From NCBI GenBank assembly GCA_035529375.1, contig DATKWU010000017.1, forward strand, positions 2,579 through 66,578: a stretch of 64,000 bases of DNA. The letters run 5' to 3'. Source of the stretch: Patescibacteria group bacterium (GTDB lineage Bacteria > Patescibacteriota > Microgenomatia > PFEM01 > JAHIFH01). Positions within the stretch are counted from its first letter, which is position 1; every line of letters begins with the position of its first letter. The notes under the pieces are model-generated. The model ran no database searches. It was not told where the DNA came from and saw nothing but the letters and a program-made list of their open reading frames with translations. Positions 17,874 through 45,569 of the stretch are shown piece by piece. A program made the position numbers and the translations under genes.

Positions 17874-17896
17874 ATGTCTATTGTATCACATTAAAT

Positions 17897-17995
17897 AAGC
17901 CCTCTATTTCGGGCTTTTTAGAATGTGTGACCCTAAGGGGAGTTCAATTAAACACTTTGGAGTATGTGGTGAAGCTAAGAGAGGTGTTTCAAACT
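17897..17995 (+). repeat. Copy 1 of the ~100-bp tRNA-Glu-3'-end-derived repeat
   Basis: Hairpin aagccctctatttcgggctt followed by tttt, then gtgaccctaaggggagttcaattaaacactttggagtatgt. It shares the last ~15 nt of tRNA-Glu (copy 1 has one mismatch). Confidence 0.8.
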
Positions 17996-18059
17996 GATTA
18001 CGATTACAGTTTTCGGTATGATAAAATAAAGGCTAAAGGTTGTTTGTTATAATAAACCA

Positions 18060-18392
18060 ATGAAGAAAACTAGCCATACTTTAAAAGATTTGACTAAATT
18101 GATAATGCATCAAGCTAAAGAAAAAGGGTTCGGAACAAAACCTGAGGAAATAAATGTCCCTGAAAAAATTGCTTTGATTCACAGTGAAATTTCCGAAGCC
18201 TACGAAGCATATAGGAACAAAAAAATTGAAGGCAGGAACGGTTTTAAAGAAGAAATGGGCGATGCAATTCAGAGAATTCTTCATTTAGCAGGAACATTGG
18301 GGATAGATATTGAAGAGGTAATTATTAAGAAGATTAAGAAAAATAAAGGAAGAAAATGGAATTGGGAAAAACTAAATGAAAAGCATGTATAA
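18060..18392 (+). CDS. MazG-like nucleotide pyrophosphohydrolase (small all-alpha NTP-PPase)
   Basis: EKIALIHSEISEAYEAYR...EEMGDAIQRILHLAG is the EExxE/D metal-binding pattern of the MazG family. Confidence 0.65.
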   Translation: MKKTSHTLKDLTKLIMHQAKEKGFGTKPEEINVPEKIALIHSEISEAYEAYRNKKIEGRNGFKEEMGDAIQRILHLAGTLGIDIEEVIIKKIKKNKGRKWNWEKLNEKHV

Positions 18393-18438
18393 GTAACTTC
18401 AAAGTTGTTCTAAGTCGTTTTATAAGTTCTATAAACAA

Positions 18439-18520
18439 AAAGCCCTCTATTTCGGGCTTTTATTTGTTTGGTGACCCCGAGGGGAGTTCAATTAAACACT
18501 TTGGAGTATGTTATGAGATT
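18439..18520 (+). repeat. Copy 2 of the tRNA-Glu-end repeat
   Basis: aagccctctatttcgggcttt...gtgaccccgaggggagttcaattaaacactttggagtatgt. Confidence 0.8.
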
Positions 18521-18600
18521 CAAGAAAATTTTTCAGTCTCGTTCAAATGATGTTGCTGCTTTTTATTCTGTTTGTTGAAGTGCTAGTGTAAAATATTACT

Positions 18601-18987
18601 GTGTCTAAAGAAACCTGCTTGTTCTGCGATAGGAATAACCCAGAAAAACATACCATAATAAGTGAAAATGATTTGTTCTATGGAAGATGGGATAACTTCC
18701 CCGTCTCAGATGGGCATGCAGAAATTGTTCCCAAAAGACACGTTGAATCACTTTTCGAACTAACAGATAATGAGTTAGTTCAATTGTTTGATTTACTTAA
18801 AAAAGTAAAAGATATTATTCAAGATAAATACAGTCCTGATGCTTTTAATATTGGAATAAATGAAGGAGAAGAAGCGGGGAGAACTATTCACCATCTTCAT
18901 GTGCATATTATTCCAAGATATAAAGGTGACGTAGAAAACCCAAGAGGCGGTATAAGACACGTGATTTCAGGGAAAGGAAACTACTAA
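18601..18987 (+). CDS. HIT (histidine triad) family protein
   Basis: HHLHVHIIPR histidine triad. The start codon is GTG. Confidence 0.85.
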   Translation: MSKETCLFCDRNNPEKHTIISENDLFYGRWDNFPVSDGHAEIVPKRHVESLFELTDNELVQLFDLLKKVKDIIQDKYSPDAFNIGINEGEEAGRTIHHLHVHIIPRYKGDVENPRGGIRHVISGKGNY

Positions 18988-19095
18988 AAAGCCCTTTATT
19001 TCGGAATATTTTGATAGTGTGACCCCGAGGGGAGTTCAATTAAACACCTTGGAGTATGTAGTGAGGTTGAGGGAGGTGTTTCAAGTGAGTTCTGG
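18987..19095 (+). repeat. Copy 3 of the tRNA-Glu-end repeat
   Basis: aaagccctttatttcgg...gtgaccccgaggggagttcaattaaacaccttggagtatgtagtgaggttgagggaggtgtttcaa. Confidence 0.8.
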
Positions 19096-19132
19096 AGCCG
19101 AAGCCTTCTTTTTAGGTTAACAATAAAAACCA

Positions 19133-19669
19133 CTACTTTTTCGTGTTAAACCTACTTAGGATAGTATTTAATTCGGGTCTTAATAGGGCTATTGTATAAG
19201 CTCCCGTATGACCAGGAGACTTTACAAAGTAAATAGTTCTAACCTCTGCCTCACTGAAAAAAGGCCAAGGGAAGTCTCTTCTATTCCTTGTTAATATTAA
19301 AGAATTCGTTAATATTGATGTTGTGGCAATAATTATATCTCCCATATCAATATTACTCTTAAGCATTTTATCATTTCTGAACAAAGTGTATAGTTGAGCT
19401 GATCCAATCAAAACTTGTTCGCTAATGAAATATCTGTTGAAATTTTTAAGGAATTTAAATATCTCGTTTTCTTGTTTTTTGGTGGTATTCCTAAGTATTT
19501 CATGAACAGAAACATCTGAAATTGCCATCCCAAAGCCTCTCCTCATCAATTCAGTAATATATGCAATAAAACTAGTAGCGGTTGGCATTCTTCCGGTGTA
19601 TTGGAGGATGTTTGTATCTAAAATGACGAACTGATCTGGAAGTTTTGGTTGAGATGGCTTTTCATTCAT
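19133..19669 (-). CDS. PIN-domain (VapC-like) toxin
   Basis: FVILDTNIL at the N-terminus, then DIIIATTS and LTRNRRDF (conserved acidic residues). Confidence 0.65.
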   Translation of the reverse strand: MNEKPSQPKLPDQFVILDTNILQYTGRMPTATSFIAYITELMRRGFGMAISDVSVHEILRNTTKKQENEIFKFLKNFNRYFISEQVLIGSAQLYTLFRNDKMLKSNIDMGDIIIATTSILTNSLILTRNRRDFPWPFFSEAEVRTIYFVKSPGHTGAYTIALLRPELNTILSRFNTKK

Positions 19670-19898
19670 TTTGTTCTTGGTCAGGATGCTTGGGCTCTTG
19701 GGGTAAAGGAATTATTTCGTCTTCTACCGCTTTTTCCATTTCGCTAATAATTTCTTTAGATGGTGTTACCGTTCCACTACTCGGAATAGAAGTGCTATTT
19801 ATGTCTGTTTTCCCTTTTGGCGGAATAGAAATTGATGCCTCAGGGGGCTTTTCTGGAAATACTTTTTCGCCTTTTGGTTTTGGTTGTGTGTCGTCCAT
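19662..19898 (-). CDS. Putative cognate antitoxin (78 aa, Pro/Glu-rich)
   Basis: It lies immediately upstream of the PIN gene and overlaps it by 8 nt. It has no recognisable fold. Confidence 0.3.
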   Translation of the reverse strand: MDDTQPKPKGEKVFPEKPPEASISIPPKGKTDINSTSIPSSGTVTPSKEIISEMEKAVEDEIIPLPQEPKHPDQEQNE

Positions 19899-20037
19899 AA
19901 GTTAATTCTATCATAAATTAGTATAATTAGCCTGTGAAGTTGACCTTTAAGCAAAGACTGTTTATTGCGAATTATCTGAAGACTGGCAATGCTACTAAGG
20001 CAGCAGCCAGGGCCTACAATGTTAAAAGCAGGAACGT

Positions 20038-20070
20038 AGCTGGCGAGTATAGACGCTATTCGAACCTATT
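20038..20070 (+). repeat. Copy 1 (divergent) of the 32-nt cassette-boundary repeat
   Basis: tggcgagtatagacgctattcgaacctatt. Compare the copies at 21781 and 22861. Confidence 0.6.
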
Positions 20071-20483
20071 TAGTCAGTAATATTAGTTATTAATTTATCT
20101 ACTTTCCTTTTTATCAGAATAAAAATATTTTCTGAGAGTTTTAGGTATTCTATCTCCCTTTTTATGTCTAAGGGCTTCCCATTAAGATTAGCGTCATCAA
20201 AGTCAGGTAAATCCCAGATTTTATACTTCTTAGGGGTGGAAAGTTTGCTTCGGCAATACTCATAATTCTTTTTACCAATAAAAACAACAAGGTCAGCTTT
20301 TAAAAGTTGGTTATTGCTTGTTTCTTTCCATTCATTACTCATATAGGGAATTAATTTATTTCTGTTTGTCAATCGTTGGGCGTACCATGTTATCGGTCCC
20401 TTATGTTGGGCCGATGCTTGTGTACCACTGGAGGATACAAAGATACTAGGGATTTTTTTTAGAACGCAAATATGCTTCGGCAA
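20070..20483 (-). CDS. Hypothetical protein
   Basis: 137-aa ORF. The gene layout in this array is compact and codon usage is typical. Confidence 0.4.
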   Translation of the reverse strand: MPKHICVLKKIPSIFVSSSGTQASAQHKGPITWYAQRLTNRNKLIPYMSNEWKETSNNQLLKADLVVFIGKKNYEYCRSKLSTPKKYKIWDLPDFDDANLNGKPLDIKREIEYLKLSENIFILIKRKVDKLITNITD

Positions 20484-20571
20484 GCCTACTTCGGAATATA
20501 TTTCCCGTACAAACGAAGTGAATATGAAATGCTTTATTTTTCATAGGTTAAGTTTATAAGCTGAGCTCCTC

Positions 20572-20583
20572 GGTCTGGACCCG
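20572..20583 (+). repeat. Short repeat ggtctggacccg (copy 1)
   Basis: The same 12-mer recurs at 21173-21184 in the equivalent inter-cassette position. Confidence 0.4.
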
Positions 20584-20703
20584 TTTTATCCCGTAGCTAT
20601 TTCTTCTTTTTCTGGCTAGCTTTCGTACCATCAGAAAAGGTTGCTTCTAGCTTGGTAAAAACATTCGTAGGGTGCAAATCTCTTTGATCAAAAGCTAGTC
20701 TCT

Positions 20704-21126
20704 TTATGCCTGGCTCAACGAATATTTGTGTTTTTTTCTTTTCCCTTTTTCTCCGGCATATACGACGAGTCGTAAACCTACTTTTGATTTAGTCAGTAAA
20801 GAGGTAACAAAATATTTATTGTCTTTTGAGGATATTTTTTCCTCTGCTATTGGCAAAGCTTCATCGTCGAGATTGATAAATTTCATATTTTTATAAATTC
20901 TGGAGTTTAATTTTCTCTTTACATATTTTTTCTCATCATGATATTCCCTTGGAAGAGAGTAAATTTTTTTACACTCCTCGCACTTGAGTTTGTGTGTATA
21001 TATTTCTCCTTCTTCATAATAGGGTTCGAGTTGAAGAAAATCTTTTGGGCACAACGGCACGGGGTTTCGCGAAACCTTTCCGATAACCCATTTTATTTTG
21101 TCAATTATTATTCCTTGATCTGCCAT
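20704..21126 (-). CDS. Hypothetical protein with a CxxD...CEEC zinc-ribbon-like motif
   Basis: 140-aa ORF containing LCPKDF...KCEECKK. Confidence 0.4.
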   Translation of the reverse strand: MADQGIIIDKIKWVIGKVSRNPVPLCPKDFLQLEPYYEEGEIYTHKLKCEECKKIYSLPREYHDEKKYVKRKLNSRIYKNMKFINLDDEALPIAEEKISSKDNKYFVTSLLTKSKVGLRLVVYAGEKGKRKKHKYSLSQA

Positions 21127-21172
21127 TTATTAGTAAATAATAATTAATCTACCCGATTTTGCTGAACAGACT

Positions 21173-21184
21173 GGTCTGGACCCG
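21173..21184 (+). repeat. Short repeat ggtctggacccg (copy 2)
   Basis: Identical 12-mer. Confidence 0.4.
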
Positions 21185-21228
21185 CTTGGTTCCATAAGTT
21201 ACTTTTATTTTAGATTAGAATTGCTTTT

Positions 21229-21768
21229 CTACCCAAATCTAATAGCACCTTTATAGATATACCCTGGTTCGTGTATTTCTATTGTATTTTTCAATCTACC
21301 TTGAACTGCTAAGTTAGCTGACATAGAGTCTAGCCAAACTTCTACAGCTTTGCACACGTCCTTGCAAAAAACTTGAACATTCAGCTGCAAAAATGATTTT
21401 TTCTCACCGTTAAAAATGCAGTCCTTAATAAGATTACGGTGTGCACCTTTAGTCAAAAATACAAAATGCTCTAGAACCTCCTGTTTTTTTTGGTCGGAAA
21501 TATCATCCTTCCCTTGATGTAGAAGTGCACACCTCAAAGCATAGCAATCCTTGCCCGACAGAAAACCATTATATTGGGGTAAATTTTTTTCAACCCAATC
21601 AGAATATTTTTCACCTGAAGTTTTTTCGTGTTCAAGTGCAGCACAGATGTCTGGAAGGGTCAAAGAGACAAACAAAGCAACGTACCAGTTTTGGTTATCT
21701 AATGCTTTATAAACTGAATCAATAATTTTTTGCATATTTTTTTCTGAATTATGAGGGTAGGGTTGCAA
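21229..21768 (-). CDS. Hypothetical protein with an Rx4H motif (HEPN-like); paralog of the 23005-23547 product
   Basis: ALRCALLHQG fits Rx4H. The C-terminal FLQLNVQVFCKDVCKAVEVWL aligns with TLQLDMNLFCQDVLDSIDKLYEV of the paralog. Confidence 0.4.
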   Translation of the reverse strand: MQPYPHNSEKNMQKIIDSVYKALDNQNWYVALFVSLTLPDICAALEHEKTSGEKYSDWVEKNLPQYNGFLSGKDCYALRCALLHQGKDDISDQKKQEVLEHFVFLTKGAHRNLIKDCIFNGEKKSFLQLNVQVFCKDVCKAVEVWLDSMSANLAVQGRLKNTIEIHEPGYIYKGAIRFG

Positions 21769-21780
21769 GCCTACCCAATT

Positions 21781-21814
21781 TGGCTGGCGAGTGTGGACAC
21801 TATTCGAACCTATT
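21781..21814 (+). repeat. Copy 2 of the 32-nt cassette-boundary repeat
   Basis: tggctggcgagtgtggacactattcgaacctatt, followed by a conserved aagagaacctgtttttgttcc-like tail. Confidence 0.65.
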
Positions 21815-21864
21815 TTATCACAACAAGAGAACCTGTTTTTGTTCCTAATTTTAATTCTTAATTA

Positions 21865-22758
21865 TTATTGCTTAATTTTCGCGGCTACTTCGTTTTTATA
21901 TTGGAACTCTGGACAAAATGGAGGTATCAGATTTCTGTTTCGCATTAAATCTCTCATTCTCTTCATTACTTCAAAATCCGTATCAGAAGAAATCCAACGC
22001 TTCATTACTTCTTCATCCACCCAGAGTGTTTTTAGTTGATAAATGGAAGAATAATATTTTCTAAAAAAGTCTATGCCATTTTGGGGACTATCGAAAAAGA
22101 CAGTACAATATGAAGCAAAATACTCTTTGAAACCGTCAATTGTAAAGATGTTTCTTGCATAATAATATAGTTTGACTGTGTCAATATCGCTAAAATCTCC
22201 TTCAATCGGCTCACCATATTCATTCAACATGTCTGGGCTAATTAAAGGAACATCTGCAATATCCAGAGGAACAGCATGACCATCATTCGAAGCTATTTGA
22301 TATACTGCGCAGTTTTTTTCAACACTATCTAACAAGGCAAAACTTCGCGAAGGTAAAGCGGAACAGTTTGCAAAAACATAATTTAGATTTCCAATTTCTA
22401 AATCTAACTGACCAGACTGTTGTTTAAGTTCCTCTACAGGCTTACCCTGAATTGAGGCAAGGCAGATTGGACTATCAGGAACTACCTCTTCCCCCAATGG
22501 CTGTCTGGTTTTATGAACAATGTCATCAAATAAAGCAGAGTCGTAGTAATCACGGAATTCTCGTGCTTTTTTCTGAAAGTCTTCCTCAGTCTGACCTTGA
22601 CCTCGTTGAATATAAGCTTCACGAAGAACATCTACAGCCCTAGTTAAATTTTCCTGTAGTAGTCTTTGGGGCCTCTCAGCAACTTGCCGGACACTATCAC
22701 TTCGGATAAGTCTAGCTTGTTCTAGAATAGCATTTGTTTTTATCTCTTTATCATCCAT
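21865..22758 (-). CDS. Hypothetical protein (297 aa)
   Basis: Long ORF in the cassette-like array with no recognisable motif. Confidence 0.4.
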   Translation of the reverse strand: MDDKEIKTNAILEQARLIRSDSVRQVAERPQRLLQENLTRAVDVLREAYIQRGQGQTEEDFQKKAREFRDYYDSALFDDIVHKTRQPLGEEVVPDSPICLASIQGKPVEELKQQSGQLDLEIGNLNYVFANCSALPSRSFALLDSVEKNCAVYQIASNDGHAVPLDIADVPLISPDMLNEYGEPIEGDFSDIDTVKLYYYARNIFTIDGFKEYFASYCTVFFDSPQNGIDFFRKYYSSIYQLKTLWVDEEVMKRWISSDTDFEVMKRMRDLMRNRNLIPPFCPEFQYKNEVAAKIKQ

Positions 22759-22860
22759 TTCTCATATTTTACTCAAGTTGAAGAATTTTTTAAAGATTTT
22801 GTGAGGTTTAAAAGCTTCGAACCGTCCTACTTCGGTGGTAATTTTCAAGGCTAAAATTTT

Positions 22861-22894
22861 GGGCTGGCGAGTGTGGACACTATTCGAACCTATT
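22861..22894 (+). repeat. Copy 3 of the 32-nt cassette-boundary repeat
   Basis: gggctggcgagtgtggacactattcgaacctatt, followed by aagagccttgttttattccc. Confidence 0.65.
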
Positions 22895-23004
22895 GGTTAG
22901 GCAAGAAAGAGCCTTGTTTTATTCCCATCTATGCCTAATCCGAAAGGACTACTTGGTTTTACTGACAAATCGGTCTAGAATGTTTTAATCCTTATAACTA
23001 ACGT

Positions 23005-23547
23005 CTATTTTAATTCTTTAAAGAAATCAAAATCCGAAGCTTTAATATATTTCTTGTTTCTGTTAAGGATACTTGTCTTGTTTAGTGGAGTAGATTGTTG
23101 AGAAATCGCCTTAGCAAATTGTTCTTTATAAGATTCTGTCAACACTTCATAGAGCTTATCTATTGAATCAAGCACGTCTTGGCAAAAGAGATTCATATCT
23201 AATTGAAGTGTGCTGTCCACAAAATACAAGTGAAACTTCCTTTGTATATCTAGCGGATTATTTGTATGGGAAATGTTAAATATCCATCCAATATCTTTTT
23301 TCTTATACTTAAAGTTCTTAGGGAAGTGCTGATGTAGTAGTCCGTGTCGATAAACAAGCGTTATAAATACAGCATATTTAGCGTAACGAGGGTCGATTTT
23401 TGACAGAACTAATTTTAAATAGGTTGTAATATTTTCTGTAGTTGCGCGAGATTCGCCAGTTATAAAAGAACCAAGTCCATCAATTTCTGGGAATAGTAGT
23501 CTTGGAATCGCAAAAAATCCTGTCATGTTAGCAGAATACACTGGCAA
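23005..23547 (-). CDS. Hypothetical Rx4H-motif (HEPN-like) protein; paralog of the 21229-21768 product
   Basis: YRHGLLHQ fits Rx4H. The C-terminal region is shared with the paralog. Confidence 0.4.
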   Translation of the reverse strand: MPVYSANMTGFFAIPRLLFPEIDGLGSFITGESRATTENITTYLKLVLSKIDPRYAKYAVFITLVYRHGLLHQHFPKNFKYKKKDIGWIFNISHTNNPLDIQRKFHLYFVDSTLQLDMNLFCQDVLDSIDKLYEVLTESYKEQFAKAISQQSTPLNKTSILNRNKKYIKASDFDFFKELK

Positions 23548-23592
23548 TACAATTCCAACATCTTTCTCTATAGATTTTTTAATATTATCGAG

Positions 23593-23865
23593 ATGCTCTA
23601 TCCTCGTCCGCTCTCCACGGCCATCCTGGAAGTTGGGTTACCTTGGGTTTTCAGAGCGATATATGAAGGGAAAATGTCGGGATTAGTCATTGGTGTAATT
23701 TTCACCTTGGCGTCTGGCATCCCGGCACTTGTTTTTCTCTTCATGCTCCATGAGATGCAGGCAGGGCTATCTATGGCTTTCTTGTCCATAGGTATGGCTA
23801 TTTCCTGCATTGTGGGGACCTTAATAGACAGATGGGAAATCAAACAAGTCCTTGGACATCTGTAG
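23593..23865 (+). CDS. Small two-TM membrane protein (higher local GC)
   Basis: 90-aa hydrophobic ORF. It may be spurious. Confidence 0.25.
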   Translation: MLYPRPLSTAILEVGLPWVFRAIYEGKMSGLVIGVIFTLASGIPALVFLFMLHEMQAGLSMAFLSIGMAISCIVGTLIDRWEIKQVLGHL

Positions 23866-24041
23866 CGGTTTCAGCTATCTGGCTATCTCTACGATGGCAT
23901 AATAGACTCGCCACTATTGAGCCATCAGAACGAAGGTCCTAGATTAAGGAGGGACAAAACTATGCCTATTGGGTAGCGTTTTGTTCCTCCTAAACTCACT
24001 TTTTCCTTTCCACAAACCATCTCTGGGAATTTTACACAGAA

Positions 24042-24150
24042 AAAGCTCTCTATCTCTGGCTTTTTAGAATGTGTGACCCAGATGGGAGTTGAAACAAACA
24101 CTTTGGAGTATATAGTGAGGCTTCAGGAGATATTTCAGCCTGTGGACTCT
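24042..24150 (+). repeat. Copy 4 of the tRNA-Glu-end repeat (diverged)
   Basis: aaagctctctatctctggcttttt...gtgacccagatgggagttgaaacaaacactttggagtatatagtgaggcttcaggagatatttca. Confidence 0.7.
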
Positions 24151-24167
24151 GTGGTATACTATGGTCA

Positions 24168-25112
24168 ATGAAAATTGTGATTTTCAAACCTAAGTCGGGT
24201 TTTTCTCCAAAACAGCAAAAACAAATTGCCTCACTCGGCAAAGTTGTTTACACCAAAACAAACCAAGAACTTCCAATGAAAAAACTCCTAAAAATTGCTA
24301 AGGGTGCAGAAATCATTGGCGTTGACCCTGATCCCCTTGGTGGTTTTGAAAAGGCTAAAGAGAAGCTAACCAAAATAATGGAGTCTTTGCCCAAACTTAA
24401 GGGTGTCTGTCTTTCCACAACTTCTTTTGGCTGGATCGATTTAGATTATTGTAGTAAGCGGGGCATTACGGTTAGTAACGTTCCAGGCTATTCAAGAGAG
24501 TCTGTTGCTGAACACGCCTTAGCCCTATTGCTTTGTTTGGCTAAAGGAATTATTACCAGCGATCGGAAAACCCAAAGGGGAAAATACAAGCTAGAAATGG
24601 GTTTTGAACTAAAAGGAAAAACGCTTGGCATTATTGGTCTGGGTAATATTGGTAGCAGAATGGCCGAACTTGGCCAGGGAATAGGCATGAAAGTCATTGC
24701 TTATAATCGAAGTCCAAAGAAAATGAAGGGAGTCCAGATGAAATCTTTAAATGAATTATTAAAAAGATCAGATACAATTTCTCTGCACACCACACATGAG
24801 GAAAGTAATGATGAAATGGTTAATGAAAAAATGTTATCTAAAATGAAAGACTGTGTAATTATTGTGAATACAGTTGATAGAGAGATAGTTGATGAAAGCG
24901 CTATGGCAGAAGCCTTAAAGTCTGGAAAAGTCCGTGCCTATGCCTATGAGGGCGAAGATTTGACTCGTACACCTTTAGCTAAAATAGAAAACGCTATAGG
25001 GGTAAAGGCGTTTGCTTACTACACTAAAGAAGCGCTAGATAATTTATATGAAATTTGGGTTGGTAATCTTGTAGCCTTGCGTAAAAGTAAGCCTCGAAAC
25101 CTCGTAAGTTAA
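24168..25112 (+). CDS. D-isomer-specific 2-hydroxyacid dehydrogenase family (NAD-binding)
   Basis: Rossmann motif GIIGLGNIGSRMAELG plus a catalytic His/Glu region, 314 aa. Confidence 0.85.
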   Translation: MKIVIFKPKSGFSPKQQKQIASLGKVVYTKTNQELPMKKLLKIAKGAEIIGVDPDPLGGFEKAKEKLTKIMESLPKLKGVCLSTTSFGWIDLDYCSKRGITVSNVPGYSRESVAEHALALLLCLAKGIITSDRKTQRGKYKLEMGFELKGKTLGIIGLGNIGSRMAELGQGIGMKVIAYNRSPKKMKGVQMKSLNELLKRSDTISLHTTHEESNDEMVNEKMLSKMKDCVIIVNTVDREIVDESAMAEALKSGKVRAYAYEGEDLTRTPLAKIENAIGVKAFAYYTKEALDNLYEIWVGNLVALRKSKPRNLVS

Positions 25113-25131
25113 TTGGATCAATATCAATTGA

Positions 25132-25235
25132 AAAAAGTCCTCTATTTCGGTTTTTTTAGAATGTGTGACCCCAAGGGGAGTTCAATTAAACACTTTGAAA
25201 TATGTAATAATGGTTCAGGAGATATTTGAACCTCT
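25132..25235 (+). repeat. Copy 5 of the tRNA-Glu-end repeat
   Basis: aaaagtcctctatttcgg...gtgaccccaaggggagttcaattaaacactttgaaatatgtaataatggttcaggagatatttgaa. Confidence 0.75.
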
Positions 25236-25308
25236 AACTATTTATCAGTCGGTTTGTGCTTTTAAATGAGCATCATAGTTCTTTTGTAGTTATGTTAATA
25301 TAAAGTCA

Positions 25309-26112
25309 ATGGAGATAACGTTTTTAGGCACTGGTGGTGGTACAAACGAAGAAAGATTTAAAACTTGTATTTTTTTACCTCTTAATGAGAAGAACAATTT
25401 AATTTTGGACGTAGGTGGCGGAACCGAAATAATTAACCAATTCGCCAAGGCCAAGATTAATCCTGCTTGTGTAAATCACATTTTTATTAGTCATACTCAT
25501 TTTGACCACTGTTTAGGTTTGCCCGCCTTTTTGTTTTATCTTGTGACCGAAAAGAAAGAAGAAATGCCAGGAAAAATGGGGATTTACTCTAACAAAAGAA
25601 TAATCAGTGATTTAAAAGAAGTTTTGAGAATTACTGGGGCTGGCGCACTTAAGCGTTGGGGAGATAGATTAATCTGGATTGATACAGGATTAGAAAAACC
25701 AGTTAGAATAACAAGAGATTGCAGTTTGCTTGCCTTCCCTGCCAAAGGAGGGCAAGAATTGAAAGAACAAGATTTAAGCTGTTTAATTAAACTTTCTCGC
25801 CTCCAAAAATCCATTCTTTTTACAGGTGATACTACCCCAAATGAGTATTTAGAAAAATATGCTCGAGGTGTTGATACATTGATTCACGAAGCAATTCTTA
25901 CCCATAAAAATGTCGAGCTTGCTCATAGGCATGGTCATTCTACATCTCAAGATGCAGGTAAACTTGCTCAACAAGCAGGAGTAAAACAGTTAGTGTTAAC
26001 CCATATCTATCGGGAAAGTATTGTTAAAGAAAAATCTCTTCTTGAGGAGACTATGAAATATTATTCAGGACCTGTTCAACTAGCTCATGACTTTGAAACA
26101 ATTAATATTTAA
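25309..26112 (+). CDS. MBL-fold metallo-hydrolase (RNase Z / beta-lactamase-like)
   Basis: ISHTHFDHCLGLP motif, 267 aa. Confidence 0.75.
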   Translation: MEITFLGTGGGTNEERFKTCIFLPLNEKNNLILDVGGGTEIINQFAKAKINPACVNHIFISHTHFDHCLGLPAFLFYLVTEKKEEMPGKMGIYSNKRIISDLKEVLRITGAGALKRWGDRLIWIDTGLEKPVRITRDCSLLAFPAKGGQELKEQDLSCLIKLSRLQKSILFTGDTTPNEYLEKYARGVDTLIHEAILTHKNVELAHRHGHSTSQDAGKLAQQAGVKQLVLTHIYRESIVKEKSLLEETMKYYSGPVQLAHDFETINI

Positions 26113-26145
26113 AAAAGCCCTTTATTTCGGGCTTTTTGGAATGTG
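26112..26145 (+). repeat. Copy 6 of the hairpin module, fused directly to the genuine tRNA-Glu gene
   Basis: aaagccctttatttcgggcttttt ggaatgtgt runs straight into the tRNA 3' end. Confidence 0.75.
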
Positions 26146-26218
26146 TGACCCCGAGGGGAATCGAACCCCTGTTTTCAGGATGAAAACCTGACGTCCTAGA
26201 CCGCTAGACGACGGGGCC
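26146..26218 (-). tRNA. tRNA-Glu (anticodon UUC); CCA not encoded
   Basis: The reverse complement GGCCCCGTCGTCTAGCGGTCTAGGACGTCAGGTTTTCATCCTGAAAACAGGGGTTCGATTCCCCTCGGGGTCA folds as a cloverleaf with acceptor, D, anticodon (loop TTTTCAT) and T (TTCGATT) arms. Confidence 0.85.
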
Positions 26219-26230
26219 TGGTGAGCCCAA
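26215..26230 (+). repeat. 16-bp direct repeat ggcctggtgagcccaa (left copy, includes the first 4 nt of tRNA-Glu)
   Basis: An identical 16-mer recurs at 28365-28380. Confidence 0.6.
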
Positions 26231-26485
26231 GAGGGACTCCTACGAACACTTTTACCCTTATCTTCTAACTCTTTATCGTGGCTTTAATTATATCACAAAG
26301 GTTTATTCTTATCATATTGTCTAAGAAACCAAAAAATAAGAGATAGTATGAATGGAATCATTACTACTAAAACTTTATTCAATTGATTCAGAAAAATTGC
26401 CATCATTGAACAATGATAGTAACTTTTTTTAGTTTAAGGCAAATTAAATTTTTGCTAGTTCGTGATAAAATAAGGACAAAGTAAG

Positions 26486-27121
26486 ATGCCAAATAAGAAA
26501 GCGCCTGATCTCACTAAACGAACTAAACCACTTTTTGCCTTCTTTGATGTAGAAAACGTTCGAAACAGTGTAGAGGAATATGGATATATTGACCTTAACT
26601 ATCCTAAAATTATTGGCTGGTTGAAAAATAAAAGAAGTGTTAGTCGGATTTATCTCTATGCATCTGCAGAACCAGGAGATACAATTAAAAAGAAAAAGTA
26701 TTTAGATTTGCAGAAGATTCCTGGTTGTTATGTGTCCATTAAAAGGATTATGGCCTACAAGCAAAAACCATGGCCCCTCGAGACAATTTGCCCAAGTTGT
26801 CAACATTCATTTGTAAGAAAAATTTACATAAAAGATCACAAAAAGGGAAACTGCGATGCGGAGATGACTTTAGATATTGTTAGGTTTGGAGTTAGGAAAA
26901 AATATAGTGGAATTATTGTCTTTTCTGGTGACGGTGATTTTGCAAGAGTTTACGAATATGTTGCGGAAGAATTAAAAAAGCCCGTTATTCTTTTTGCACC
27001 AGATAAGGTGCCAGGTAAAAAAAGAACATCGTCGAGACTAAAGAAACTAGCGAATAACGGGACAATCAAACTAGAAAGCTTAAAGGGGTTGATGTTTCAT
27101 TATGGACAGAAAGAAGAATAA
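26486..27121 (+). CDS. NYN-domain (LabA/PIN-like) RNase family protein with an inserted CxxC...HxxxxxC zinc motif
   Basis: FFDVENV...YASAEPGD...GNCDAEMTLDIV...IIVFSGDGDF are the acidic residues typical of the NYN family. Confidence 0.65.
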   Translation: MPNKKAPDLTKRTKPLFAFFDVENVRNSVEEYGYIDLNYPKIIGWLKNKRSVSRIYLYASAEPGDTIKKKKYLDLQKIPGCYVSIKRIMAYKQKPWPLETICPSCQHSFVRKIYIKDHKKGNCDAEMTLDIVRFGVRKKYSGIIVFSGDGDFARVYEYVAEELKKPVILFAPDKVPGKKRTSSRLKKLANNGTIKLESLKGLMFHYGQKEE

Positions 27122-27280
27122 AAAAAGCCCCCCGAAGGCGACTTTTTTGATTGAGTGGATATACTTTATCACATTAAACTATCTTTGTCAACCTTATACC
27201 ACCTTATATTATCTTATCATATTTTGTGTTAGTTTAAATTGTATTAATGTCGTAAAAGTGCTAGAATTGGTTTCAAACAT

Positions 27281-27856
27281 ATGCCTCGAGAAATCATTTT
27301 CAGGTTAATGCCAGCCAATCTGAAGAGAAAACTAGAAAACTACCTTAATAAACCCTCAACTTCACGTCTCGAAGCCAGAAATAAACTTATTGTCAGTCTT
27401 TTTTATTATTGCGGTTTTAGAACATGGATGCTAACAGATCTAAAAAAGAAAAACTACGACCCAAAAAATAAAATGCTTTATTTTCGTCTTCGAACAAATT
27501 CTCTCAAAGAGAATAGTATACTTCTAGACGAATCTGTTTTTAAACTGATAGATTTTTTAACTAGATCATTTTCGAATCCAGAGTGGCCATTAATTATGAG
27601 TTTTAAAATTGATAGCCCGATAAATAAGCCACTATCTCCTCGCCAGATCCAAAGGGTTACCAAAAATATTTTGTTATCACTTGGTTTTAAAAAAAATATT
27701 CCACCAAGAATGTTGAGGCATAATGTTGGTATTAACTTAACCAAGGAAAAACTAAGACATAAATCGTTAAATAAATTAATTGGCAGAGTTTCTCCTTGGG
27801 TTTTTACAGAATACAAAAAAAGAGCGGGTAACTTTAAGAAAGTTGGGAAAATTTAA
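27281..27856 (+). CDS. Short tyrosine recombinase-like protein (catalytic domain only; no N-terminal core-binding domain)
   Basis: EARNKLIVSLFYYCGFRTWML resembles the box I Arg region. PRMLRHNVG resembles HxLRH. IGRVSPWVFTEY resembles LGHxxxxxTxxYTH with the Tyr. The product is only 191 aa. Confidence 0.5.
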   Translation: MPREIIFRLMPANLKRKLENYLNKPSTSRLEARNKLIVSLFYYCGFRTWMLTDLKKKNYDPKNKMLYFRLRTNSLKENSILLDESVFKLIDFLTRSFSNPEWPLIMSFKIDSPINKPLSPRQIQRVTKNILLSLGFKKNIPPRMLRHNVGINLTKEKLRHKSLNKLIGRVSPWVFTEYKKRAGNFKKVGKI

Positions 27857-28093
27857 AATTTAGAATTATTGGCTTATTGCCAATATTATTCAAAAAAAAG
27901 AGTAACTGTGTTCGATATTTGACGAAAAATTACATTGGGTAGGTTTTCATTATCGAACACTTAAATTAAATGAAATTTTTGAAGCGTTTAGGGCTGTAGA
28001 TAGGACTATTCAGAAGAAACCTTTTTCACAATTATCCACAGAAATAGTAAGATGTAAACCTGTCAGTAATCAGTTCGCACCAATTATTAAGCT

Positions 28094-28324
28094 TTATTGC
28101 TTTATACCACTGTCTATTACAACATCGCCTGTGTCTTCGTCAATATGACCCATAACTATTTCATATTCGCTATGCTCTACTATCCATTTAGCTCCTGGTG
28201 CTAATTCAGATAATTCAGGTGGAATACCCATTTCTTCTAGTTCTCTAGCATTTTGTTCAGCGCTAATTCTAGCAATTTCTCCTGTTGATTCCTCCGATGA
28301 CGTTGGTTTTATTGTTTCTGACAA
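28094..28324 (-). CDS. Hypothetical acidic protein (76 aa)
   Basis: ORF with no recognisable motif. Confidence 0.3.
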   Translation of the reverse strand: MSETIKPTSSEESTGEIARISAEQNARELEEMGIPPELSELAPGAKWIVEHSEYEIVMGHIDEDTGDVVIDSGIKQ

Positions 28325-28364
28325 TTTTATTCACCCCCTGTCAATTTTTCTTAATTCGCTTTTA

Positions 28365-28380
28365 GGCCTGGTGAGCCCAA
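28365..28380 (+). repeat. 16-bp direct repeat ggcctggtgagcccaa (right copy)
   Basis: Identical to 26215-26230. Confidence 0.6.
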
Positions 28381-28478: not shown

Positions 28479-28955
28479 TTGAAGTCGGTAATGAGGAGGA
28501 GAATGATTAAGTCTTCCTTGTACGACGAAAAAACCTTTTATCAAAAATTCATTGAAGATCTTTCCACCTGTCAAAAAGAGGTCATCATTGAGAGCCCCTT
28601 CATTTCAACGGAGAGAGCGAAAAGACTCTACCCGACTTTTGAAAAGTTAGTAAAACAAGGAGTCAGGGTTTACGTTTTGACCAGAGACCCGAGAGAACAT
28701 AGCCAGAGTTTCGAAGTCCAATCCGAGTTTGAAATTCGCAGATTTGAGGTTTTGGGGGTTCAGGTTTTCATCTGTACCGGCAACCATCACCGCAAGTTGG
28801 CTATTTTGGACCGGAAAATACTTTGGGAAGGAAGCTTGAACATTTTATCTCAAATTAAAAGCCGGGAAATAATGAGACGAATAGAGGGTAAAAAGTCAGC
28901 GTTAGAGATGTTTCGCTTCTTGAAATTAGGCAGGTTTATCAAAGAAGGGGTATAA
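28479..28955 (+). CDS. Phospholipase D / Nuc-family (HKD motif) nuclease
   Basis: GNHHRKLAILDRKILWEGSLNI is an HxK(x)4D(x)6GSxN motif. Confidence 0.7.
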   Translation: MKSVMRRRMIKSSLYDEKTFYQKFIEDLSTCQKEVIIESPFISTERAKRLYPTFEKLVKQGVRVYVLTRDPREHSQSFEVQSEFEIRRFEVLGVQVFICTGNHHRKLAILDRKILWEGSLNILSQIKSREIMRRIEGKKSALEMFRFLKLGRFIKEGV

Positions 28956-28956
28956 T

Positions 28957-29172
28957 ATGGAGGCAATGGCTAAAAAGAAAAGTCAGTTCGAAAAAGATAT
29001 CGAGAGCGTAATTAGGTTTTTAAAACAAACCGACCCCGAAAAGGCTACCCGGGCCAATGCCATCGAAATGCTGGGAAGCATGCAGACTTTGGCCCACCTG
29101 ATTGCCCATAAGGTAGTTGATAAGGAAAGGGGCGAAAAGCTTCGGAAAGAAATTAAGAAAAGGAAAAAGTAA
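28957..29172 (+). CDS. Small hypothetical protein (71 aa, helical)
   Basis: Tightly coupled ORF after the HKD nuclease. Confidence 0.3.
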   Translation: MEAMAKKKSQFEKDIESVIRFLKQTDPEKATRANAIEMLGSMQTLAHLIAHKVVDKERGEKLRKEIKKRKK

Positions 29173-29175
29173 TTC

Positions 29176-29388
29176 TTAATAAGGCAGGATTTTTGAAGAT
29201 TTTACTTTCAGAGCTTTAGTTACTCCAAAAAGTTTCTCTTGGGAAGGGTTGGCTTCGCCGCGCTCAATTCGGGCATAGTAATTGGGATGAATACCGGCTT
29301 TGTCGGCTACCTCCACCTGAGTCATTCCCGCTTTTAGCCTAGCCTCTTTAAGATTTTTTCCTAATTGTTTACGGATGATTTTAGTCAT
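29176..29388 (-). CDS. XRE-family helix-turn-helix transcriptional regulator
   Basis: LKEARLKAGMTQVEVADKAGIHPNYYARIERGEANPS is a Cro/C1-type HTH. Confidence 0.75.
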   Translation of the reverse strand: MTKIIRKQLGKNLKEARLKAGMTQVEVADKAGIHPNYYARIERGEANPSQEKLFGVTKALKVKSSKILPY

Positions 29389-29467
29389 TCCTGTCCATAT
29401 ATTAACAATATCCTATTGGGTTGTACAAGGTTTTTCTGGGTGACCAGTAAGGGAAAATAATTTTTGG

Positions 29468-29740
29468 CTAATCTATTCCCGCTCGTTGCTTTGCCTCTTC
29501 ATGGGACATTCCTTTGTCTCGCCAAAAATCGTACAACTGATCCAATAGCTCCGCTTCTCCTCGCTCGTATGCCTCAAGGCTTTCACCAGACAACTCCATT
29601 GACCCTGGAGGGCCGCCAGCTTCACCGGCAAATTTAACTATTCCTTCGTCGTCGATACCAATGCCACGCAAGGGAATTCGACGGACTCTTTGAGGCCGAG
29701 GGCCATGCCCTAGAGCTTGCTCAAAGTCTGGATTACTCAT
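29468..29740 (-). CDS. Hypothetical protein (90 aa, high GC)
   Basis: ORF between the M23 peptidase and XRE genes. Confidence 0.3.
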   Translation of the reverse strand: MSNPDFEQALGHGPRPQRVRRIPLRGIGIDDEGIVKFAGEAGGPPGSMELSGESLEAYERGEAELLDQLYDFWRDKGMSHEEAKQRAGID

Positions 29741-29843
29741 AAAATCTCACCCCCAATCAAAACTGTAACTCTTAATTGTTTTAGAGAATGTTTACGCGAT
29801 TATTTTATCTTAACGTTAGTAAATAAGCAAAAGTCAATGTTCA

Positions 29844-30455
29844 TTAACTTCCTCCCAAAAACACCCTCGGATTGACTGGTATGCCAAAGACGTTGATTTG
29901 AAAGTGCAAATGCGGTCCGGTTGCCCAACCGGTGCTGTCCTCGGTGCCGATGACATCGCCTGGTTTGACTTCCTGGCCCACTTCGACCCAGATGGTCTCC
30001 AAATGGGCGTAGATGGAAGCGAGATTATCGCCGTGATCGATGATGATGTGCTTGCCAAAACCCCAAGAGATTTGACCCGCGTAAACAACGGTTCCGGGCA
30101 TGAACGGGGTGATGAGGTCGCCTTTTTTGCCTTCGGGATTGGCAATGTCAATGCCGGTATGGAAAAGCTGCCAGCGGCTCGATTCGCCGAACTCGAGGGT
30201 AATGATTCCCGTCACCGGCCAGACGAAGGGGCCTTTGATGGTTTTGTAGACGCTGCCGTCAAACGGGTTTAAGATTTGAACCTCATTGGTGACTTCATTA
30301 ATCGCCACCAATCGTTCGGAAACAAAATCCAAACCCGTCCGGGTGAGAATGATCACCCCGATAAGGGGCATCAAGATGACCAGAAGAAAAGCCAGGAGGA
30401 CATAGAAGAACTCCTTTTTAAAAGAAAAAAAGGTCATTATTAAAAAGGGATTCAT
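29844..30455 (-). CDS. M23 family (LytM-like) peptidoglycan endopeptidase with an N-terminal TM anchor
   Basis: HTGIDIA...GTVVYAG...HLHFQ are the M23 motifs. It is the last gene of the T4SS operon. Confidence 0.85.
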   Translation of the reverse strand: MNPFLIMTFFSFKKEFFYVLLAFLLVILMPLIGVIILTRTGLDFVSERLVAINEVTNEVQILNPFDGSVYKTIKGPFVWPVTGIITLEFGESSRWQLFHTGIDIANPEGKKGDLITPFMPGTVVYAGQISWGFGKHIIIDHGDNLASIYAHLETIWVEVGQEVKPGDVIGTEDSTGWATGPHLHFQINVFGIPVNPRVFLGGS

Positions 30456-32212: not shown

Positions 32213-32747
32213 CTTTGTTTTTAGATAAAAGCTGATAGGTTTTTTCTTTGATGGGCTGGGTTTTACAGACCCCGGGATTGTAAAAACTGTAAAAAAGCTC
32301 GAGAATTTCCAGGGTGTTGAGGCTTCTGGTTTTCATCCCCAGCCGCTCCAAGCCTTTGCTGATAATGTCCAGGCTGAGATTGATTTGTTCTTTAACCAAA
32401 TTGAAGTCGTTTTTTTCCGGTTCCGGCTCGTAGGGAATCACCAGGTAGAAGCGCCGGGAAAGGATTTTACTGCCCTTGACTAATTGCTTGACAAACTGGC
32501 CATAGTGCTTGATCTGCTGGCGGTAAAGCTTGTTGGTTTCGTGATTGTTTTTGTTGTTGAAAACCTCAAGATAGTTGTCAATCTCCACTTCGCGGACCCG
32601 AATCAAAATCTGGATGGGGCAAGGCAGGGCGTTGATGAAATTTTGGAAATTGTCAATCAAGGCGTCTTGCTCGGCCTCGCTTTTGAGCTCAAAGTTAATC
32701 GCCGAGGTTTCGACCACCACCCGATATTTATTTTCCGGCAGAACCAA
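32187..32747 (-). CDS. Putative N-terminal segment of VirB4, overlapping the downstream VirB4 ORF by 26 nt
   Basis: 186 + 586 aa is about 770 aa, a normal VirB4 length. The two ORFs overlap in different frames. Confidence 0.45.
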   Translation of the reverse strand: MVLPENKYRVVVETSAINFELKSEAEQDALIDNFQNFINALPCPIQILIRVREVEIDNYLEVFNNKNNHETNKLYRQQIKHYGQFVKQLVKGSKILSRRFYLVIPYEPEPEKNDFNLVKEQINLSLDIISKGLERLGMKTRSLNTLEILELFYSFYNPGVCKTQPIKEKTYQLLSKNKDVIQTPKL

Positions 32748-45290: not shown

Positions 45291-45569
45291 TTACGGCATA
45301 AATGGTTTTTTCCAGGTTGAGGGTTCAAACATGAGGTCAACAATACGAGGATCAACGTCAAGGGTGTCAGCGAGTTGATTTCTGAACTTGGGATAATCCT
45401 CGTCAGTTGTCAGAATAACGTATAATTGTGTTATGAGAGAAAGGGTTAAACAGGCAATAGCAAAAAGGTTTTTGGATTTTTCCATGCGCGGCAGTCTCGA
45501 TGAATACCTTAATCCTACCCAAGAACTTAGCAACTTTGGAAAATGTTTGGTTAAAAAAGTAGTCCCCAT
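45291..45569 (-). pseudogene. Gene fragment duplicating the 3' end of the 46060-46806 gene
   Basis: Its C-terminal FRNQLADTLDVDPRIVDLMFEPST matches RDQLANALDVDPRIVDLMFEPST of the longer gene. About 75 nt are nearly identical (45305-45380 versus 46090-46165). Confidence 0.4.

Follow-up and report, generated by a model that had tools for sequence, protein, structure and literature searches.

Candidate single-gene cassettes with tRNA-Gln-like boundary sites nested in a tRNA-Glu-anchored array of a Patescibacteria genome

The genomes of Patescibacteria are tiny, and few mobile elements have been recognised in them, so that it is poorly understood how these bacteria gain accessory genes. The locus analyzed here raises this question in a concrete form. 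In a 64-kb stretch of Patescibacteria DNA (the whole stretch analyzed, hereafter the window), a block of minus-strand genes with short repeated elements at their 3' sides lies within the 5054-nt interval between two 112-nt repeats at 18976 and 24030. The initial annotation of this DNA likened the layout to integron cassettes. What are these repeats, and how might genes come to be stacked between them?

Two repeat families in the block proved to be real (Table 1). A 33-mer occurs three times in the window, compared with 0 occurrences expected by chance (100 shuffles), and its 28-nt core, GCTGGCGAGTRTRGACRCTATTCGAACC, lies on the plus strand at 20039-20066, 21783-21810 and 22863-22890. Copies 2 and 3 agree at all 33 positions, and copy 1 carries three substitutions. 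The second family is represented by a 12-mer, GGTCTGGACCCG, at 20572-20583 and 21173-21184 (2 occurrences, 0.06 expected). Each element is directly 3' of a minus-strand gene: 33-mer copies 1, 2 and 3 follow cargo genes 3, 6 and 7, and the 12-mers at 20572 and 21173 follow cargo genes 4 and 5, respectively. The cassette-like arrangement of one gene plus one 3' site in a single repeated orientation thus held for five ORFs. An extra conserved tail previously noticed on copies 2 and 3 was also present and is alike in both (aagagaacctgtttttgttcc and aaagagccttgttttattccc, respectively); the 33-mer and tail together form a unit of ~80 nt. The DNA on either side of the 33-mer is diverged among the window copies. 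Copy 3 and its left extension form an imperfect palindrome of ~80 nt, but the inverted arm is absent from copies 1 and 2 and from most family members, and only a left-arm subfamily is palindromic.

Table 1. Features of the nested block and of the outer array, in window positions
Feature	Position	Strand	Remarks
Outer 112-nt repeat, left bound	18976-19087	+	hairpin, 16 nt of tRNA-Glu 3' end, micro-ORF starting with GTG
PIN-like ORF (19133-19669) and 78-aa upstream ORF (19662-19898)	19133-19898	-	putative toxin-antitoxin pair
Terminase small subunit, N-terminal fragment	19934-20038	+	truncated exactly at edge of copy 1
Copy 1, boundary unit	20038-20093	+	core intact; tail degenerate (LASIDAIRTYLVSNISY, stop)
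Cargo gene 3, low-molecular-weight phosphatase/ArsC-like	20070-20544	-	frameshift in T8 run
23-mer GGGTCCAGACCGAGGAGCTCAGC	20560-20582	-	second orphan tRNA-Gln-3'-like site
Cargo gene 4 (140 aa, Cys-rich)	20704-21126	-	no family match
23-mer GGGTCCAGACCAGTCTGTTCAGC	21161-21183	-	orphan tRNA-Gln 3' end copy: T-loop, T-stem, acceptor strand, G73, C74
Cargo gene 5 (168 aa from ATG)	21229-21735	-	matches phrog_18591; 136 homologues; RCALLH
Copy 2, boundary unit	21781-21861	+	micro-ORF 21784-21861: LASVDTIRTYFITTREPVFVPNFNS, stop
Cargo gene 6 (297 aa)	21865-22758	-	no family match
Copy 3 left extension	22816-22860	+	TTCGAACCGTCCTACTTCGGTGG plus spacer; inverted tRNA-3'-like arm
Copy 3, ~80-nt boundary unit	22861-22938	+	minus-strand reading is a tRNA-Gln-3'-end-like core, ending ..AATAGGTTCGAATAGTGTCCACACTCGCCAGC
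Copy 3 micro-ORF	22864-22938	+	no start codon; LASVDTIRTYWLGKKEPCFIPIYA, stop
Cargo gene 7 (180 aa)	23005-23547	-	distant relative of gene 5 family; RHGLLH
Outer 112-nt repeat, right bound	24030-24141	+	micro-ORF stop overlaps ATG of dehydrogenase gene at 24168
tRNA-Glu, outer array anchor	26145-26218	-	
2.15-kb unit	26215-28380	+	bracketed by perfect 16-nt direct repeat GGCCTGGTGAGCCCAA; carries NYN gene
Tyrosine recombinase, 191 aa	27281-27856		in 2.15-kb unit, beside tRNA-Glu

The ~80-nt unit was found in 33 metagenome contigs and in one Patescibacteria single-cell genome, at equivalent gene boundaries and beside unrelated genes. Judged by sequence, the repeats are members of families spread over many Patescibacteria. 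In nearly all contigs the unit has a sharp edge after GCT, and the left flanks are unrelated. Units are mostly co-oriented with the upstream gene and lie directly past its stop codon, the stop codon of the neighbouring gene being about -4 to +20 nt from the unit end. Co-oriented arrays are frequent, in which diverged copies occupy successive intergenic regions, one unit in each; about 7 units occur in 8 kb of one contig (L004) and 4 in another (L029). The copy 3 unit recurs in three contigs as an ~80-nt block at about 90% identity, and the genes flanking it on either side are unrelated; about 90% of its left extension is conserved in L004 and L029, where flanking genes are unrelated. Homologues of gene 5 in other contigs had no 33-mer unit flanking them. 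No cassette showed presence/absence polymorphism, and contigs with identical proteins keep one gene order.

Along the gene strand, the unit has a tRNA-Gln-like end (GGTTCGAAT…CTCGCCA-G-C), and the terminus of the core (..GGTTCGAAT..CTCGCCAGC) is the terminus of real tRNA-Gln genes. Conservation of the unit ends exactly at the mimicked tRNA end. In 6 of approximately 30 loci, the unit is preceded at a distance of 0.3-1.3 kb by a co-oriented tRNA-Gln gene; the order in these six is tRNA-Gln, then cargo, then unit, all in one orientation. Among the tRNAs of element-bearing loci (L004-L037), 6 of 10 are tRNA-Gln; the 64-kb window contains none. Identity between the resident tRNA-Gln and the unit is confined to the T-loop and the terminal CAGC, so that simple displacement of the resident tRNA end does not account for the units. 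The 33-mer core is also 5 nt longer than true tRNA geometry. The 12-mer, in turn, is the centre of a 23-mer with exact tRNA-Gln geometry from the T-loop to C74. The pattern GG[GT]TCnnG[AT]nC-N8-CAGC, which fits this family, gave 9 hits versus 0 in 20 shuffles. In one contig (L042), a real tRNA-Gln, itself among the 9 hits, is followed by three orphan copies, each after a successive gene.

The reading that we favour, and hold with middling confidence, is that the repeats are att-type sites bounding single-gene cassettes, which are nested in an array anchored at tRNA-Glu. Each cassette would end, on the gene strand, in a mimic of the tRNA-Gln 3' end that includes the T-loop, the acceptor 3' strand, G73 and C74. 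What the sequences show directly is the repeat families, their sharp edge, the arrays and the tie to tRNA-Gln. We infer both the cause, recombination, and the kind of enzyme: the sites would be traces of, or substrates for, recombination at tRNA-Gln by a tyrosine recombinase, and successive events would pile cassettes downstream of the tRNA in one orientation. The window would then hold a block of tRNA-Gln-type cassettes, without a tRNA-Gln of its own, inside one interval of a second, similar array, which would be anchored at tRNA-Glu beside a small tyrosine recombinase. The terminase fragment, whose breakpoint coincides with the edge of copy 1, counts in favour of a cassette boundary. The outer repeats have 16 nt in common with the tRNA-Glu 3' end, and the tRNA-like core of this outer family is antisense to the cargo genes. 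The recombinase is separated from the nested block by 3.3 kb and by the tRNA-Glu gene, and does not adjoin the array; neither the nested block nor the arrays of L004, L029 and L042 contained a recombinase gene. Stacked integrations and scattered partial tRNAs have been described in the tRNA-anchored islands of tycheposons (bioRxiv 10.1101/2020.12.28.424599).

One property of the unit is not accounted for by att function, namely protein-level constraint on its arm. The ~50-nt arm of the larger unit codes for a peptide of ~25 codons on the opposite strand. In the coding frame, the micro-ORF tail has a synonymous fraction of 0.21, a mean BLOSUM62 score of differing codons of +1.19 and 2 stops, and the other five frames have mean scores of -0.18 to -1.04 and 12-51 stops. 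The peptide persists in diverged copies whose DNA varies (synonymous CTA/CTG and CGA/CGT), and conservation starts within one codon of the micro-ORF and stops at its stop codon. These features speak for an alternative that we regard as unlikely, in which the unit is a gene for a micro-protein of ~26-30 aa ((M)LAS[VI]D[AT]IRTYF...K[EQ]P.FIP.Y.), multiplied and dispersed in Patescibacteria islands. The sharp edge would then be the coding start, and startless copies, including all three in the window, would be decaying pseudogenes. The codon before the micro-ORF is ATG, GTG or TTG in 17 of 36 copies, and intact tails are commoner among these (our own tally over the examined copies). However, about half of the copies carry TAG, TGG or GGG where a start codon would be expected, and conservation opens with a codon for Leu (CTG, TTG or CTA). 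Upstream of the micro-ORF, neither a promoter nor a ribosome-binding site is conserved, and searches of 5.8 billion predicted proteins and of 1.8 billion representatives did not find the peptide, although proteins of such size are seldom called. In L004, the core outlasts the peptide tail, being kept in all copies versus about half. A dispersed micro-protein gene would also leave the tRNA-Gln-like core and the linkage to tRNA-Gln unaccounted for. The micro-ORF may be a real micro-protein or, as with the short ORFs of integron attI sites, a translated pad.

The remaining alternatives to att-type cassette boundaries are less probable still. That the repeats are RNA-level 3'-end signals (terminators, stabilisers, or tRNA-like sites processed by RNase P or RNase Z) would fit their position past stop codons and their usual co-orientation with the upstream gene; the limit of conservation, at the mimicked tRNA 3' end, would also be the RNase Z cut position, as inferred from tRNA maturation. 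We nevertheless consider such a role quite improbable. Folding of the repeats with their tails, which had been proposed as a check, gave no conserved structure over 20 units (RNAalifold, -2.3 kcal/mol, 3 pairs, no covariation), single-sequence folds of copies 2 and 3 were no better than shuffles, and no Rfam covariance model matched. The acceptor 5' strand that should pair with the 3' strand is absent, and the outer-family core is antisense to the genes. The resemblance to integrons extends to the layout and to a few further points: copy 3 and its left arm are palindromic, the L004 equivalent folds at -31 kcal/mol (z -4.8), and a tyrosine recombinase is nearby, whose best NCBIfam match is to the XerA / 'integron integrase' model. 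But this protein has only 191 aa, its best match scores 47 bits versus a cut-off of 220, and the integron-integrase model was not hit. Moreover, the sites are sequence-conserved across many genomes and tRNA-like, in contrast to attC. Because there is no conserved RNA hairpin, no RYYYAAC/GTTRRRY core and no IntI, the locus is not an integron, and attC sites recombined by an IntI integrase are a very improbable, largely refuted explanation; only the layout of the earlier comparison survives. Finally, the repeats could be remnants of recent local duplication, that is, copied UTRs of duplicated genes, as the identity of copies 2 and 3 and the distant relationship of genes 5 and 7 might suggest. 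Yet the genes beside copies 1, 2 and 3 are mutually unrelated and the DNA around the 33-mer is diverged. More than 30 other contigs have the same elements beside unrelated genes, so that an origin as UTRs of recently duplicated genes is refuted by the cross-genome data and has a probability of next to nil; the cassette-like layout withstood the refuting condition named in the initial annotation.

Some cargo genes could be assigned to families. Cargo gene 3, after repair of its frameshift, matches Pfam LMWPc (E 6.5e-9). A PIN toxin-antitoxin pair, as annotated initially, is plausible, with weak support: the PIN-like ORF overlaps its 78-aa partner by 8 nt and matches NCBIfam VapC with an E value of 0.001, but its match to Pfam PIN (E 0.0017, 19.4 bits) is under the 23.6 cut-off. 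Genes 5 and 7 had been described as diverged paralogs with an Rx4H motif that might encode a HEPN-like defence effector. In gene 5, R68-C69...H73 is invariant, R68 and H73 being present in 46 homologues, and RHGLLH of gene 7 aligns with this motif in a profile comparison (72.6% probability, E 3e-5). Pairwise BLASTP aligned only 19 residues (E 0.001); the two proteins are probably distant relatives sharing an invariant Rx4H motif. Membership in HEPN is not demonstrated by sequence or by the predicted model. Neither protein had Pfam, NCBIfam or PADLOC hits. The model of gene 5 (pLDDT 96) had no significant best PDB matches; HEPN protein 2hsb ranked 3 (probability 0.23) and Csx1 ranked 7, and good structural matches were only to uncharacterised phage proteins. 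Like HEPN RNases, these proteins are mainly helical, place an invariant Rx4H in a helix and have defence-island-like surroundings with toxin-antitoxin genes; unlike them, they have no sequence-profile match, and the model contains an inserted three-stranded sheet.

Candidate cassettes of this kind share properties with several known systems. As in tRNA islands (Islander-type elements and tycheposons), arrays lie downstream of a tRNA gene, co-oriented copies of tRNA 3' ends mark unit ends, units pile up with accessory-gene cargo, and a tyrosine recombinase is nearby. In contrast to these islands, most units consist of one gene (0.5-1.1 kb) and lack an integrase or replication module of their own, the repeat is a conserved mimic common to many genomes rather than a copy of the resident tRNA end, one array is nested in another of different tRNA specificity, and the arm contains a selected micro-ORF. 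In the E. coli tyrT locus, each of the 178-bp repeats opens with the 3'-terminal 19 nt of tRNA-Tyr and codes for Tpr, a small peptide. These repeats also lie downstream of a tRNA gene and contain a tRNA 3' end and a small ORF, but they are tandem, have no genes between them, and their ORF is on the tRNA strand. With integron arrays, the locus shares promoter-poor genes in one orientation, each with a 3' recombination-type site whose far end is the unit edge; it differs in that arrays begin at tRNA genes, not at attI beside intI, and in that the sites are conserved in sequence and tRNA-derived. We know of no clear precedent for a selected antisense micro-ORF in a recombination-type site besides the non-conserved ORF-11 of attI1. 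Short ORFs in att sites, such as ORF-11 of attI1, aid cassette translation (PMC8876359). The overlap of the outer micro-ORF with the start codon of the following gene resembles this arrangement.

Tentatively, and with some doubt, we suggest that Patescibacteria possess a lineage-wide system of cassette capture that is integron-like in working and differently built, in which recombination at conserved tRNA-3'-mimic sites would stack single accessory genes downstream of tRNA genes, the arm of each site carrying a selected, startless antisense peptide. Completion of the peptide, or its translation by coupling, might be restricted to certain array positions, or the peptide might be a new micro-protein for cassette maintenance. 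A recurring, sequence-defined boundary element offers a concrete entry point to gene gain in these organisms, and searches for boundary sites could uncover their flexible gene pool. Whether genes can be captured in an integron-like manner in the absence of an integron can now be tested directly. Units downstream of tRNA-Glu are bounded by similar families, as are, apparently, units next to tRNA-Ser and tRNA-Leu genes.

The initial annotation had described five genes of the nested block, the minus-strand genes inside the largest interval of the outer repeat array, as each being followed by a short repeat, in a layout resembling integron cassettes. The repeats and this arrangement were confirmed by the positions of a 28-nt core, GCTGGCGAGTRTRGACRCTATTCGAACC, and of a 12-mer (0 and 0.06 occurrences expected by chance, respectively) and by the ORF map, in which the five minus-strand ORFs from 20070 on have one repeat each at the 3' side. 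The conserved tail common to copies 2 and 3 of the 33-mer unit (an ~80-nt boundary element consisting of a 33-mer core and a tail) is also real. JGI metagenome contig Ga0307378_10000604 matches the window, and the sequences related to the window come from Patescibacteria.

Coordinates of the repeats, genes and neighboring features in the window
Feature	Position	Strand	Remarks
Outer 112-nt unit	17884-26218 (array)		hairpin + 16 nt of tRNA-Glu 3' end + 32-41-codon micro-ORF from GTG
Outer repeat, five full copies	17884-25233
Outer repeat, partial copy	26145-26218	minus	fused to tRNA-Glu
Nested block	between outer copies at 18976 and 24030		5054 nt
ORFs of the nested block	19133-19669, 19662-19898, 20070-20544 (gene 3), 20704-21126, 21229-21735 (gene 5), 21865-22758 (gene 6), 23005-23547 (gene 7)	minus
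28-nt core	20039, 21783, 22863		copies 1, 2 and 3 of the 33-mer unit
12-mer	20572, 21173
23-mer	20560-20582, 21161-21183	minus	12-mer at its center
T8 run	20440-20470		in gene 3
Two strong hairpins	23896-23993		between gene 7 and next outer unit
Hairpin with ACTCGCCA in loop	~23896-23929
Hairpin with ~14-bp stem	23945-23993
Perfect 16-nt direct repeat, GGCCTGGTGAGCCCAA	26215-26230, 28365-28380		spacing 2150 nt
Genes past the recombinase	28479-32747
92-nt direct repeat	45314-45405, 46092-46183		77% identity

A degenerate pattern was used to search for the core, and matches were found in one Patescibacteria single-cell genome (L004) and 33 metagenome contigs. All real matches have a sharp conservation edge after GCT: leftward of it the DNA is unrelated between loci, with no conserved promoter found upstream of the edge, and rightward the conservation extends for ~75 nt. 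A DNA profile of the unit picked up additional, diverged copies within these contigs, co-oriented without exception. The single-cell genome has approximately seven copies in 8 kb, one per successive intergenic region, the metagenome contig L029 has four, and several other contigs have two. In the window plus-strand orientation, the right-hand neighbor is usually a convergent gene whose stop codon lies a few nt from the unit end; the unit therefore follows a gene. The layout of a gene plus a 3' site is real and general, and holds in many genomes beside unrelated genes. The window, L004 and L029 share the ~80-nt block of copy 3 at ~90% identity despite different genes on either side. Two units of L004 (476-747 and 4936-5275) carry a ~29-nt insertion, TTGAAAATGGTGAGCCAAGTCGAACCA, that breaks the micro-ORF described below and resembles a tRNA 3' end with CCA; these units may be nested sites.

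The boundary sites are mimics of tRNA 3' ends, not integron attC sites. Read on the gene strand, the 33-mer unit has the terminus ...AAAATAGGTTCGAATAGYGTCYAYRCTCGCCAGC, contains the T-loop motif GGTTCGAAT, and includes CTCGCCA-G-C, which is arranged like an acceptor 3' strand followed by a discriminator G and C74. In the retrieved loci, every real tRNA-Gln gene ends in ...CAGC, beyond which the DNA is unconserved. Of the 10 tRNAs detected in loci that carry the element (L004-L037), 6 are tRNA-Gln. In six loci (L010, L017, L025, L030, L031 and L037), ARAGORN placed a tRNA-Gln gene 0.3-1.3 kb upstream of a unit, in the same orientation, with one or two cargo genes between them. In the second repeat family, the 12-mer is the center of a 23-mer, GG[GT]TCnnG[AT]nC-N8-CAGC, that has the exact tRNA-Gln spacing from T-loop to C74. 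This pattern has 9 matches in ~330 kb of scanned sequence, the two window copies among them, versus 0 in 20 shuffles; in one contig (L042), its matches are a genuine tRNA-Gln 3' end and three orphan copies after successive downstream genes. In another Patescibacteria contig (L038, 5398-11311), a different repeat family, AAAAAGTTCCA...CACGCTCTCCGC, occurs in short and long forms after nearly every gene; it adjoins two tRNA-Ser genes and one tRNA-Leu gene and, by eye, resembles their 3' ends. Directly after the tRNA-Gln gene of L030 (736-770) is an inverted T-loop-like fragment, AGGTTAGGATTCGAACC, so an array head can have sites in both orientations. In the window, the loop of one of two strong hairpins near gene 7 displays ACTCGCCA, a heptamer also present in the acceptor-like portion of the 33-mer unit.

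The integron comparison made in the initial annotation holds for the layout but not for the sites, for which secondary structure prediction gave no conserved hairpin. A structured RNA or attC-type hairpin was rejected because Rfam had no match at either gathering or relaxed thresholds, RNAalifold on 20 units yielded -2.3 kcal/mol with three invariant pairs and no covariation, and single-sequence folds of copies 2 and 3 were no better than those of shuffles. The exception is a subfamily with a left arm (copy 3, L004 and L029), which alone forms an imperfect ~80-nt palindrome (fold z-scores: L004, -4.8; window, -0.7); its left arm resembles an inverted tRNA-3'-like fragment. A tmRNA-like element was also rejected, as ARAGORN and Rfam were negative and the ORF lies on the strand opposite to the tRNA-like part. 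Could the whole unit be a decayed tRNA-Gln? Comparison of the tail with the 5' 50 nt of tRNA-Gln was not significant (mean z 0.22), and this possibility was rejected. Where a unit and a tRNA-Gln lie in one locus, they are identical only in the T-loop and CAGC, and the core exceeds tRNA geometry by 5 nt; together with the unlike tail, these features indicate that the units are conserved mimics, not simply displaced ends of resident tRNAs. A phage origin of the unit was rejected, since pattern scans of IMG/VR viral contigs detected zero copies.

The unit has an open frame on the window plus strand, the strand antisense to its tRNA-like reading, CTG GCG AGY RTR GAC RCT ATT CGA ACY TAT ..., encoding LAS[VI]D[AT]IRTYF...K[EQ]P.F[IV]P.Y. 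and then a stop. We compared frames over the tail of 22 sequences chosen by DNA similarity only. The micro-ORF frame stood apart from the other five in a way that indicates coding constraint: it had the highest synonymous fraction of differing codons (0.21, versus 0.08 to 0.19 in the other five frames), a mean BLOSUM62 score of differing codons of +1.19 (versus -0.18 to -1.04) and 2 stop codons (versus 12 to 51). The peptide is kept in diverged copies, e.g., LRTVDRVRTFLIVAKEPIFIPN. In 17 of 36 copies, CTG is preceded by ATG, GTG or TTG, and in most others by TAG, TGG or GGG; most copies also have an in-frame stop no more than a few codons upstream. Searches with the peptide found no predicted protein among 5.8 billion (word-indexed, with doubled peptides and a profile), only repeat-protein noise among 1.8 billion representatives (HMMER), and no match in Pfam or PDB. 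The frame could have been the C-terminus of a larger protein, such as a split integrase, an interrupted host gene or a repressor with an internal attP; this was rejected because of these empty searches and because all of the more than 35 copies lack an in-frame upstream ORF. A recombinase catalytic-tyrosine motif was rejected because several copies have Phe or His in place of Tyr. Short ORFs of integron attI sites help translate the first cassette (PMC8876359) and offer a partial precedent, but they are not conserved as peptides.

The outer array terminates at tRNA-Glu. Each outer unit lies ahead of an accessory gene on the plus strand (MazG-like, HIT, 2-hydroxyacid dehydrogenase or metallo-beta-lactamase fold) and has a micro-ORF analogous to that of the 33-mer unit, with the GTG start inside the tRNA-Glu-like part (VTPRGVQLNTLEYV[VI]RL[RQ]E[VI]FQ...). 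Differences between copies of its peptide, GVQLNTLEYVVRLREVFQ, are synonymous (Leu, Val) and conservative, and the end of the micro-ORF at 24073 overlaps the following gene in ATGA. Beside tRNA-Glu, a perfect 16-nt direct repeat has the appearance of a CCA-bearing tRNA 3' end and directly adjoins the tRNA-Glu 5' end. It brackets an NYN-domain gene and a tyrosine recombinase of 191 aa, the latter consisting of the catalytic domain only. Past the recombinase, the genes encode a PLD-like nuclease, an HTH protein, an M23 peptidase, and VirB4/TraG-like and TraC-like proteins; they may form a conjugation- or competence-type module adjoining the island.

For these arrays, the best-supported mechanism is that single-gene cassettes accreted through site-specific recombination at tRNA genes; we infer the mobility of the cassettes. 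The nested block is of tRNA-Gln type and sits in a tRNA-Glu-anchored array. Tycheposon-type islands are similar in their stacked integrations, but the units described here are much smaller, integrase-less and have conserved mimic sites. An empty site or polymorphism was sought via gene 6 and the dehydrogenase, and the same arrangement was found each time.

Among the cargo, the 168-aa product of gene 5 matches phrog_18591 (E 6.5e-38) and has 136 homologues across bacteria, archaea and phages, with invariant residues P28, D29, I30, W47, R68, C69, H73 and F123. Elsewhere, these homologues occur among toxin-antitoxin and other accessory genes; the 33-mer unit was present in 0 of 7 such contexts, and a gene and its site moving as a fixed pair was therefore rejected. 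AlphaFold modeled gene 5 with high confidence (pLDDT 96), and the only good structural matches are uncharacterized phage proteins; against PDB there was no significant neighbor, a HEPN protein ranking third (probability 0.23). Gene 7 matches the gene 5 family profile (72.6% probability, E 3e-5) over the RxxLLHQ and LQL..FC.D blocks. The proposed paralogs therefore share the Rx4H motif and are probably related, though distantly; their HEPN membership is putative, and PADLOC found nothing. For the PIN toxin-antitoxin pair also suggested, the PIN match of the ORF was below threshold. Gene 3, an LMW phosphatase/ArsC-like gene, is split into two frames by a frameshift in a T8 run; possible explanations are an assembly error, a pseudogene and a slippery run. 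An N-terminal fragment of a terminase small subunit stops precisely where copy 1 has its edge. Elsewhere in the window, a 92-nt direct repeat lies inside two neighboring minus-strand ORFs, which are probably paralogous genes.
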